From assembly GCF_036507355.1 (NCBI RefSeq), contig NZ_AP027877.1: 64,000 nt of DNA; one strand, written 5' to 3'. Position 1 is the stretch's first letter. Every line of letters begins with the position of its first letter. Shown here in pieces: positions 39,032-40,008 of the stretch. Made by a program: the position numbers and the translations under genes. A model generated the notes under the pieces. The model had not been told where the DNA came from. It saw only the letters and a program-made list of their open reading frames with translations, and made no database searches. The DNA comes from Escherichia coli. Lineage in GTDB: Bacteria > Pseudomonadota > Gammaproteobacteria > Enterobacterales > Enterobacteriaceae.

Positions 39032-39222
39032 TTCTCCACCTCGTCTCTGTGAGCGGTGTTAACTTATTGTTTTACTTATACCCTATCATTAATGAATGCG
39101 CCAACTGTGATAGTGTCATCATTTTCAAAGCGTAAAATTGTGGCATTCTTCACTGTTCTATAAGTAAGACGTTTATTCTCCCTTTTCTTTCGTATTCCCG
39201 ATGATAAAAGGATGTCCCTGAT

Positions 39223-39231
39223 GATTAAGTT
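39223..39231. repeat. IS1 target-site duplication, left copy (GATTAAGTT)
   Basis: 9-mer identical to 40000..40008, directly abutting the IS1 left inverted repeat. Confidence 0.9.
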
Positions 39232-39286
39232 GGTGATGCTGCCAACTTACTGATTTAGTGTATGATGGTGTTTTTGAGGTGCTCCA

Positions 39287-39562
39287 GTGGCTTCTGTTTC
39301 TATCAGCTGTCCCTCCTGTTCAGCTACTGACGGGGTGGTGCGTAACGGCAAAAGCACCGCCGGACATCAGCGCTATCTCTGCTCTCACTGCCGTAAAACA
39401 TGGCAACTGCAGTTCACTTACACCGCTTCTCAACCCGGTACGCACCAGAAAATCATTGATATGGCCATGAATGGCGTTGGATGCCGGGCAACAGCCCGCA
39501 TTATGGGCATTGGCCTCAACACGATTTTACGTCACTTAAAAAACTCAGGCCGCAGTCGGTAA
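39287..39562 (+). CDS. insA: IS1 protein InsA
   Basis: 91-aa ORF ([40 protein letters not shown]...). Confidence 0.93.
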
Positions 39563-39984
39563 CCTCGCGCATACAGCCGGGCAGTGACGTCATCGTCTGC
39601 GCGGAAATGGACGAACAGTGGGGCTATGTCGGGGCTAAATCGCGCCAGCGCTGGCTGTTTTACGCGTATGACAGGCTCCGGAAGACGGTTGTTGCGCACG
39701 TATTCGGTGAACGCACGATGGCGACGCTGGGGCGTCTTATGAGCCTGCTGTCACCCTTTGACGTGGTGATATGGATGACGGATGGCTGGCCGCTGTATGA
39801 ATCCCGCCTGAAGGGAAAGCTGCACGTAATCAGCAAGCGATATACGCAGCGAATTGAGCGGCATAACCTGAATCTGAGGCAGCACCTGGCACGGCTGGGA
39901 CGGAAGTCGCTGTCGTTCTCAAAATCGGTGGAGCTGCATGACAAAGTCATCGGGCATTATCTGAACATAAAACACTATCAATAA
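39481..39984 (+). CDS. insB: IS1 InsB' reading frame (expressed as InsAB' transposase by -1 frameshift)
   Basis: 167-aa ORF in the -1 frame overlapping insA; functional start is by frameshifting, so the 5' boundary is nominal. Confidence 0.85.
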
Positions 39985-39999
39985 GTTGGAGTCATTACC

Positions 40000-40008
40000 G
40001 ATTAAGTT
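40000..40008. repeat. IS1 target-site duplication, right copy (GATTAAGTT)
   Basis: 9-mer identical to 39223..39231, directly abutting the IS1 right inverted repeat. Confidence 0.9.

Follow-up and report, generated by a model that had tools for sequence, protein, structure and literature searches.

The locus comprises the divergent genes cysQ and cpdB, the second of which is interrupted by a complete copy of IS1. It lies in a 64-kb window, by which we mean the whole stretch of E. coli DNA that was analysed. On the minus strand, cysQ (38291-39031), which encodes the 3'(2'),5'-bisphosphate nucleotidase, is an intact 246-aa ORF. Its product scores 525 bits in a full-length match to NF008182 (CysQ), for which the cut-off is 379, and its start codon is 200 bp from the IS1. 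The cysQ-cpdB intergenic region (39032-39220; 189 bp) stays attached to the left end of the IS1 and is identical to that of K-12 in the aligned part. The cpdB promoters were reportedly placed in this intergenic region by Liu and Beacham in 1990, and from its position between the divergent genes we infer that 39032-39220 holds the native cpdB promoters. The native ribosome binding site, AAGGA, lies ~8 nt 5' of the cpdB ATG, and its duplex with the anti-Shine-Dalgarno sequence has an energy of -5.7 kcal/mol.

The interrupted cpdB gene

What is left of the 5' end of cpdB is the ATG and a further 8 bases, which run into the left end of the IS1 and form a remnant on the plus strand (39221-39253). 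This remnant is a 10-codon ORF, MIKLVMLPTY*, ending with the TGA at 39251-39253. Codons 2-647 and the stop follow on the same strand at 40001-41941, uninterrupted, without a promoter, ribosome binding site or ATG of their own. This downstream part encodes signal-peptide residues 2-19 and the entire 628-aa mature enzyme, and residues 2-647 of K-12 CpdB align to it at 99.5% identity with no gaps. CpdB scores 1246 bits against TIGR01390 (cut-off 883) and 1209 bits against NF006938 (cut-off 486). Moreover, once the initial M is restored, the protein is identical to that of intact alleles on 23 contigs, showing that the coding sequence is undecayed. The gene order is that of K-12, with cpdB between the divergent cysQ and ytfH. 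However, cpdB is not a contiguous gene here, as the IS1 parts the ATG and 8 bases from everything from codon 2 onward; the locus is therefore an interrupted cpdB allele and not an intact gene. CpdB is a periplasmic enzyme with a 19-aa signal peptide, and cpdB mutants fail on 2',3'-cAMP as sole carbon source (PMC4905662). Thus, the IS1 interrupts the opening codons of the signal peptide, and the mature enzyme is still fully encoded. The enzyme lets E. coli use 3'-nucleotides and 2',3'-cyclic nucleotides, and it degrades cyclic dinucleotides in vitro (PMC4905662, PMC9958556).

The IS1 copy is complete, with 768 bp on the plus strand (39232-39999), and is co-oriented with cpdB. It is bounded by a left terminal inverted repeat, IRL (39232-39254, plus strand; GGTGATGCTGCCAACTTACTGAT), and a right one, IRR (39977-39999, plus strand; ATCAATAAGTTGGAGTCATTACC), which together form an imperfect inverted repeat of 23-nt arms with 78% complementarity. 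Both termini are identical to those of K-12 IS1A, the right one reading ...AAGTTGGAGTCATTACC at 39999. The IRR also holds an in-frame TTG (39986) and a GGAG (39988-39991). Between the ends, insA (39287-39562, plus strand) is an open ORF of 91 aa with a GTG start, encoding the repressor and DNA-binding protein, and the insB' frame (39481-39984, plus strand) is open as far as its TAA stop at 39982-39984. The two are joined by the A6C programmed -1 frameshift motif AAAAAAC (39538-39544, plus strand; TTAAAAAACTC at 39536), which is at the same position as in IS1A. Modelled through this -1 frameshift, the InsAB' fusion has 232 aa and matches the NCBIfam model for the IS1 family transposase, NF033558, at 244.8 bits (cut-off 100) over profile positions 1-199 of 199. 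An identical InsAB' is on record as 'IS1-like element IS1A family transposase', with the Pfam domains Zn_ribbon_InsA, HTH_Tnp_IS1 and DDE_Tnp_IS1 (PF03811, PF12759, PF03400). The sole sigma-70-like site in 38950-40150, CTGCCA-16-TATGAT (39239-39266, plus strand), lies partly within the IRL, where the insA promoter is expected, and we take it to be that promoter, P_IRL.

The element is thus an IS1 family member in every sequence feature considered: ~768 bp between ~23-bp imperfect inverted repeats (GGTGATGCTGCCAACTTACTGAT ... GGAGTCATTACC), the -1 frameshift layout, the transposase profile match and a target duplication of the expected 8 or 9 bp. IS1 itself is described as 768 bp long with a target duplication of 8 or 9 bp (PMC12428005). 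The preliminary description had reported a complete IS1 at 39232-39999 with both inverted repeats and intact insA and insB' frames; its coordinates are exact to the base and the ends, being those of IS1A, are untruncated. No second IS1 end was found in the 64-kb window with up to 3 mismatches allowed. Judged by every sequence criterion the copy is intact, and with intact frames and ends, a full-length match to the family model and a different IS1 junction in a close relative it may plausibly still be mobile.

In length, terminal inverted repeats, insA/A6C/insB' layout and 9-bp duplication, the window copy resembles the K-12 elements IS1A and IS1E ('consensus'). It is identical to IS1A at 765 of 768 bases, the substitutions being 278 G>A, 444 T>G and 486 T>G. 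At the protein level, two residues of InsAB' differ from K-12 (V75I and S130R), as does one of InsA (V75I). The pair 444G and 486G defines an IS1 variant that is common on E. coli chromosomes and plasmids, and the sole difference between the window copy and this widespread variant is at position 278 (one copy compared base by base). Many E. coli chromosomes and plasmids carry IS1 copies with 99.9% identity to it; no copy among the complete RefSeq E. coli genomes is identical, the best identity being 99.9%. The 278A was absent from every copy checked and, with the resulting V75I in InsA and InsAB', appears to be private to the window copy. The identical InsAB' protein is encoded on two other contigs, whose DNA differs at 1-3 positions and by 1 nt in length, and no donor copy was found, as these identical-protein contigs differ in DNA. 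A recent study reports that small sequence differences among IS1 copies greatly alter their activity (PMC12428005).

Target site, lineage and age of the insertion

The 9-mer GATTAAGTT abuts the IRL at 39223-39231 and the IRR at 40000-40008, in both cases on the plus strand. It has exactly 2 copies in the 64-kb window, both directly against the IS1 ends, where ~0.4 copies would be expected by chance anywhere in the window. Given the 9-mer, the chance of its recurring at one fixed position is 4^-9, or ~4e-6 by our own calculation. When aligned with K-12, both flanks meet on a single GATTAAGTT, which is nt 3-11 of cpdB (ATG ATT AAG TT), and the insertion point falls after nt 11 of the gene, within codon 4. 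The 9-mer is also single-copy at this site in near-identical relatives and therefore represents a true target-site duplication, left by a simple insertion. The preliminary description had interpreted the flanking 9-mers as a duplication of nt 3-11 of cpdB, and the one native copy in K-12 bears this out. Its further claim, that the element comes between the rest of cpdB and both its start codon and the cysQ/cpdB promoter region, is equally evident in the sequence and in the K-12 alignment.

Once the IS1 and one copy of the 9-mer are removed, the region is collinear over 3.3 kb with K-12, and it is likewise collinear with a near-identical relative whose 647-aa cpdB is intact. Moreover, collinearity extends to the full 64 kb of the window, which corresponds in reverse orientation to K-12 4476479-4412547 with ~98-99% identity. 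Mapped onto K-12 (4436555, 4436563), the breakpoints at 39231 and 40000 share exactly 9 bp. This 9-base overlap points to a simple insertion and not to a rearrangement or part of a composite element. The IS1 transposase would have cut the two strands at GATTAAGTT with a 9-bp stagger, and the 9-mer would have been duplicated when the gaps were repaired. Between target and IS1 end, ATGATTAAGTT and ATCAATAAGTT agree at 9/11 positions; with a chance of ~0.1 by estimate, this resemblance is not significant.

In the Logan contig SRR31122001_127 the site is empty and the 647-aa cpdB is intact. Compared with the window flanks, this contig has 1 mismatch in 8,750 bp and 7 in 20,804 bp (0.03% divergence), and both it and the window lack the same 7 bp of ulaF. 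Two other close relatives, L033 and L035, do not have the 7-bp ulaF deletion, nor does any of the 5,226 complete E. coli genomes with a match to this stretch. As the empty-site relative shares the deletion and L033 does not, the order of events was the ulaF deletion, then cpdB::IS1. A further close relative, GCA_905398585.1, also has the 7-bp ulaF deletion, and one of its contigs starts with the last 75 bp of an IS1 joined to window position 48592 in ytfA, 8.6 kb away. This junction marks another IS1 event within the narrow lineage, which may be an independent insertion or a deletion mediated by IS1. If it were an adjacent deletion arising from the cpdB insertion itself, a contig end of ...CCCTGATGATTAAGTT followed by the IRL would be implied, with cpdB-ytfB missing. 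The empty-site relative and this second junction together indicate that IS1 has been very recently active in the lineage. The insertion had already been suggested to be recent on the strength of its clean ends, and this is upheld by a relative with an empty site that differs so little and shares a private ulaF deletion, as well as by CpdB codons identical to those of intact alleles.

Among complete RefSeq E. coli genomes, the one closest to the window is 98.7% identical to it over 20 kb. Exact matches to its CysQ and YjfZ alleles are uncommon: a few dozen contigs carry them, and most of these derive from assemblies of gut metagenomes. Two further gene-disrupting indels are present in the window, in ulaF and ytfR. 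Neither of the cpdB::IS1 junctions occurs in one piece in any of the 5,426 complete RefSeq E. coli genomes, so that the E. coli B genomes, which had been proposed for comparison, do not have the junction in any complete RefSeq representative. The 33-mer spanning the left junction, GTCCCTGATGATTAAGTTGGTGATGCTGCCAAC, had 0 exact matches in the GTDB species representatives and 0 in the JGI metagenome contigs. Similarly, exact-product look-ups returned nothing on record for the fused 651-aa ORF, the 621-aa ORF from ATG 40076 or the ytfR C-terminal ORF. As far as complete RefSeq E. coli, GTDB representatives and JGI metagenomes show, the codon-4 IS1 allele of cpdB is private.

Two readings of the locus compete with a recent transposition. 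In one of these, cpdB::IS1 would be an old, fixed lineage marker of the kind carried by IS-laden Shigella genomes, which could fit a window that reaches no more than 98.7% identity with a complete RefSeq E. coli genome over 20 kb and that bears additional gene-disrupting indels in ulaF and ytfR. However, the site is empty in a relative at 0.03% divergence, and the cpdB coding sequence shows no decay. Moreover, there is one IS only in 64 kb of a region otherwise fully collinear with K-12, and the rare CysQ and YjfZ alleles come mainly from gut metagenome assemblies and not from the heavily sequenced Shigella lineages, which makes a Shigella origin unlikely. We therefore regard an old marker as very improbable. 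The other reading, that an assembler misplaced the IS1 at cpdB, is scarcely credible. Multi-copy IS1 does often break or confuse assemblies, and the related GCA_905398585.1 contig breaks inside an IS1, but a misjoin would not yield a perfect 9-bp duplication of a single-copy sequence at both IS1 termini with the flanks collinear.

IS1 insertions in cpdB of other genomes

To search complete E. coli genomes, the reconstructed cpdB was extended by an IS1 placed in one or the other orientation. IS1 was found within ~1.9 kb of cpdB in 84 genomes with the co-oriented query and in 16 genomes with the opposite orientation. In the separate search of the 5,426 genomes for the window's own junctions, all of the cpdB IS1 copies had appeared co-oriented with the gene. 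This orientation bias was an artefact, because the search joins same-strand pieces only, and it was the reverse-complemented IS1 query that gave the 16 opposite-orientation genomes. Among the cases listed, in some the IS1 lies outside cpdB, in ytfI, and 24 of the first 40 belong to the DH1/DH5alpha/JM109/XL1-Blue laboratory lineage. As in the window, this lineage has an IS1A-type element in the same orientation that disrupts cpdB, which the DH1 annotation lists as a pseudogene. In that lineage, however, the IS1 sits at the very 3' end of the gene and alters the C-terminus, whereas in the window it is at codon 4; the laboratory allele is a separate event, in a K-12 background. 'cpdB' is part of the revised genotypes of JM109 and XL1-Blue (PMC11148124).

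At least 10 natural isolates have an IS1 in cpdB at other positions. These include nt 192 in MS 115-1, 437 in KL53, 496 in D3, 536-543 in EA7 and SL124, 566-574 in NT1F31 and 589-600 in PSS-08-1 and GZ2408P. Other isolates have the IS1 at the 3' end of cpdB or in the promoter region, 89 bp upstream, and in HCP8S3_I1 cpdB is bracketed by two IS1 copies. Like the window, these isolates represent independent IS1 hits in cpdB, several with flanks that overlap by 8-9 bp, and they are annotated as split 'metallophosphoesterase' genes or cpdB pseudogenes. They differ from the window in position, with none at nt 3-11, and in their IS1 isoforms, which are 93-99.6% identical. Moreover, in KL53 and D3 the insertion is accompanied by deletions or rearrangements, unlike in the window. 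IS1 in cpdB is therefore already known as a kind, both in laboratory strains and in several natural isolates.

Expression of the interrupted allele and its significance

In the arrangement described, the cpdB promoters, Shine-Dalgarno sequence and ATG would now drive only the 10-codon ORF that ends inside the IRL, and transcription from these promoters would also enter insA. The remaining 646 cpdB codons would be left 768 bp downstream with no canonical start. Hybrid promoters created by IS1 were reportedly described by Prentki et al. in 1986; in contrast, none is evident at the window junction. A scan of 38950-40150 gave no sigma-70-like site at the right junction, and by eye the IRR offers a candidate -35, TTGGAG, without an acceptable -10 at 16-18 bp, so a hybrid outward promoter was rejected. 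The in-frame TTG at 39986 lacks a Shine-Dalgarno sequence (-0.3 kcal/mol), and the next in-frame ATG (40076) is already past the signal peptide. With its promoter, ribosome binding site and ATG cut off and no canonical start in their place, cpdB is most likely silenced or strongly reduced. The classical polar IS1 insertions in the gal and lac operons are comparable, in that an IS1 between promoter and coding sequence is expected to block downstream expression. The window differs from these in that the start codon is removed too and the insertion is inside the signal-peptide codons. If cpdB is silenced or reduced, most of the periplasmic 2',3'-cyclic-nucleotide phosphodiesterase and 3'-nucleotidase activity is expected to be lost, and loss of these activities can reasonably be inferred from the literature on the enzyme (PMC4905662).

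The allele might instead be a hypomorph and not a null, which we consider unlikely. Read-through from the cpdB promoters, from P_IRL or from both would then be translated from ATT 40001 or TTG 39986 by way of the GGAG in the IRR, giving a low, IS1-dependent level of wild-type mature CpdB with a near-native signal peptide. Transcription from upstream is known to enter and stimulate IS1 copies (PMC12428005). In the window the element is co-oriented with cpdB and directly behind its promoters, and the insertion spares both the sequence encoding the whole mature enzyme and that for the hydrophobic signal-peptide core. Pairing of the GGAG with the anti-Shine-Dalgarno sequence is put at -5.9 kcal/mol (native site, -5.7), and the in-frame ATT, the old codon 2, follows 9 nt further on. 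The insB' stop, 1 nt before TTG 39986, would in addition permit re-initiation. However, ATT and a TTG without a Shine-Dalgarno sequence are very weak start codons. Moreover, IS1 insertions are classically strongly polar, with a mostly untranslated insB' that favours Rho termination, and the right junction has no promoter-like site. The GGAG/ATT spacing, the co-orientation and the promoters directly upstream thus make a trickle of export-competent CpdB conceivable, and we rate its probability as low because ATT is such a weak start and IS1 so polar. Were it to occur, the IS1 end would act as a portable translation-initiation site, an improbable arrangement in which a small amount of export-competent wild-type mature CpdB would be made at a level tied to transcription through the IS1, and hence to InsA repression.

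Selection may also be invoked, in that repeated IS1 knock-outs of cpdB would be favoured, for example via 2',3'-cNMP or cyclic dinucleotide turnover; the insertion would then be something other than a neutral or slightly deleterious accident. Such an adaptive loss would agree with the many genomes in which IS1 interrupts or abuts cpdB, at differing positions and with differing isoforms. However, a large share of the matches listed comes from one laboratory lineage, and some others have their IS1 outside cpdB. With ~64,000 chromosomal IS1 places in 5,426 genomes, ~25 would be expected in a 2-kb target by rough estimate, and against this the natural-isolate count is not clearly enriched. An IS1 hot spot in cpdB is likewise not supported, since the counts are dominated by the laboratory lineage and are otherwise near the rough chance expectation; the ~25 chance hits leave no clear evidence for either a hot spot or selected loss. 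In addition, the window insertion is private to one genome, and cpdB is reported to be pro-virulent in APEC and Salmonella and not a burden (PMC9958556). An adaptive explanation is, in our view, distinctly improbable.

Taken together, these data favour, at a probability of roughly 90%, the view that an intact IS1 moved into codon 4 of cpdB by simple transposition, very recently on an evolutionary scale, in an E. coli lineage encountered in assemblies of gut metagenomes, and that cpdB is most likely silenced or strongly reduced. The insertion is real, was correctly read and is mechanistically ordinary, and it involves no new mechanism. The strain is, from its sequence, very probably deficient in periplasmic CpdB. 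The cpdB::IS1 junction provides a clean strain-specific PCR marker, and together with the different junction in the 0.03%-diverged relative it is a sign of very recent IS1 activity in the lineage. Its importance is therefore mostly local, as a strain marker and a sign of ongoing IS1 activity rather than as new biology.

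IS1 junctions in and around cpdB

The target of the cpdB insertion, ATGATTAAGTT (window 39221-39231), is alike at 9 of 11 positions to the inner terminal repeat of IS1, ATCAATAAGTT (39977-39987 and 39244-39254). This match echoes old reports that hot spots for IS1 resemble the ends of the element, but we estimate that a likeness of this degree would arise by chance with a probability of ~0.1.

A second IS1 junction is found in the close relative GCA_905398585.1 (L034), which differs from the window at 3 of 11,335 bases and shares its ulaF deletion. Contig CAJPYR010000034.1 of this assembly begins (1-78) with the final 75 bp of IS1, joined to the sequence equivalent to window position 48592 in the ytfA region. 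The contig shows one side of the IS1, and the junction represents either a separate insertion or an IS1-mediated deletion reaching from cpdB::IS1 to ytfA.

Other IS1 events are found at cpdB in other strains. DH1 (NC_017638.1; 2880-3626 of the retrieved sequence L025) has IS1A at the very 3′ terminus of the gene, as do the listed matches H80-H100, and this arrangement is common to DH1, DH5alpha, NEB5-alpha, JM109, XL1-Blue and S17-1. In DH1-type laboratory strains the annotation treats cpdB as a pseudogene that contains an internal stop. Given the position of IS1A and this annotation, widely used cloning hosts of the DH1 lineage probably produce either a changed CpdB or no CpdB at all. The revised genotypes of JM109 and XL1-Blue include cpdB (PMC11148124). 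Moreover, two IS1 copies surround cpdB in strain HCP8S3_I1 (NZ_CM149866.1; 788-4203 of the retrieved sequence L029), the first lying in the cysQ-cpdB intergenic region, ~89 bp 5′ of the cpdB ATG, and the second, in the opposite orientation, overlapping the 3′ end of the gene. This IS1-cpdB-IS1 layout is like that of a composite transposon.

A rearrangement of a different kind was seen in the metagenome contig L007 (ENA ERZ27235424 k99_3250), where cpdB nucleotides 704-1253 are present as an inverted copy (contig positions 1-550) joined to cpdB nucleotides 1-790 (545-1334). Sequence L008 ends at the same cpdB nucleotide, 790, at which the L007 segment ends. L007 looks either chimeric, through misassembly, or derived from a cpdB that carries an internal inversion.

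Divergence of the window from K-12 and from finished genomes

Several further loci distinguish the window from K-12. The chpS-chpB toxin-antitoxin pair (~635 bp in K-12) is missing between ytfP and ppa, its place being taken by ~128 bp of unrelated sequence (27259-27388). At the left end (1-821), the homologue of yjgL is strongly diverged, aligning in two pieces with 81% and 61% amino-acid identity to K-12; DNA identity here falls to 82.5%, compared with 97-100% in neighbouring genes. An earlier stop shortens ytfI (37168-38079) to 303 aa in the window and its closest relative (L019), versus 312 aa in K-12 and other relatives. IS1 was also observed in or near ytfI in strain AST81 and several others.

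Across the 20 kb at 40009-60000, the best identity among 5,426 complete RefSeq E. coli genomes is at most 98.7%, despite fully conserved gene order. By this sequence comparison the lineage, or at least its set of alleles in this region, is poorly represented among finished genomes.

Frameshifts in ytfR and ulaF

In ytfR, on the minus strand, 10 bp are duplicated in tandem at 25067-25086 (gene-strand sequence GCTAATCAAA, present twice), which shifts the reading frame near codon 50. The gene product is the ATP-binding subunit of an ABC transporter for galactofuranose, and the duplication was not found in the best 8 ranked complete genomes. Similarly, ulaF, also on the minus strand (52701-52718), lacks TACGAAA of the K-12 gene near codon 47 (deletion point near 52709) and is thereby frameshifted into pieces of 47 and 179 aa; its product is L-ribulose-5-phosphate 4-epimerase. 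The 7-bp deletion is common to the window, L034 and the near-identical Logan contig (L032), and was not found in the close relatives L033 and L035. Among complete RefSeq E. coli genomes, identity to the deletion stretch never exceeds 92%, and the deletion is therefore absent from all of them.

The window contains three gene-disrupting changes between 25067 and 52718 (the ytfR duplication, IS1 in cpdB at 39232-39999 and the ulaF deletion), lying among ~60 otherwise conserved genes, and all three affect nutrient uptake or use. Their co-occurrence may be coincidence, or it could be an indication that selection has relaxed, or the niche has narrowed, in this lineage.
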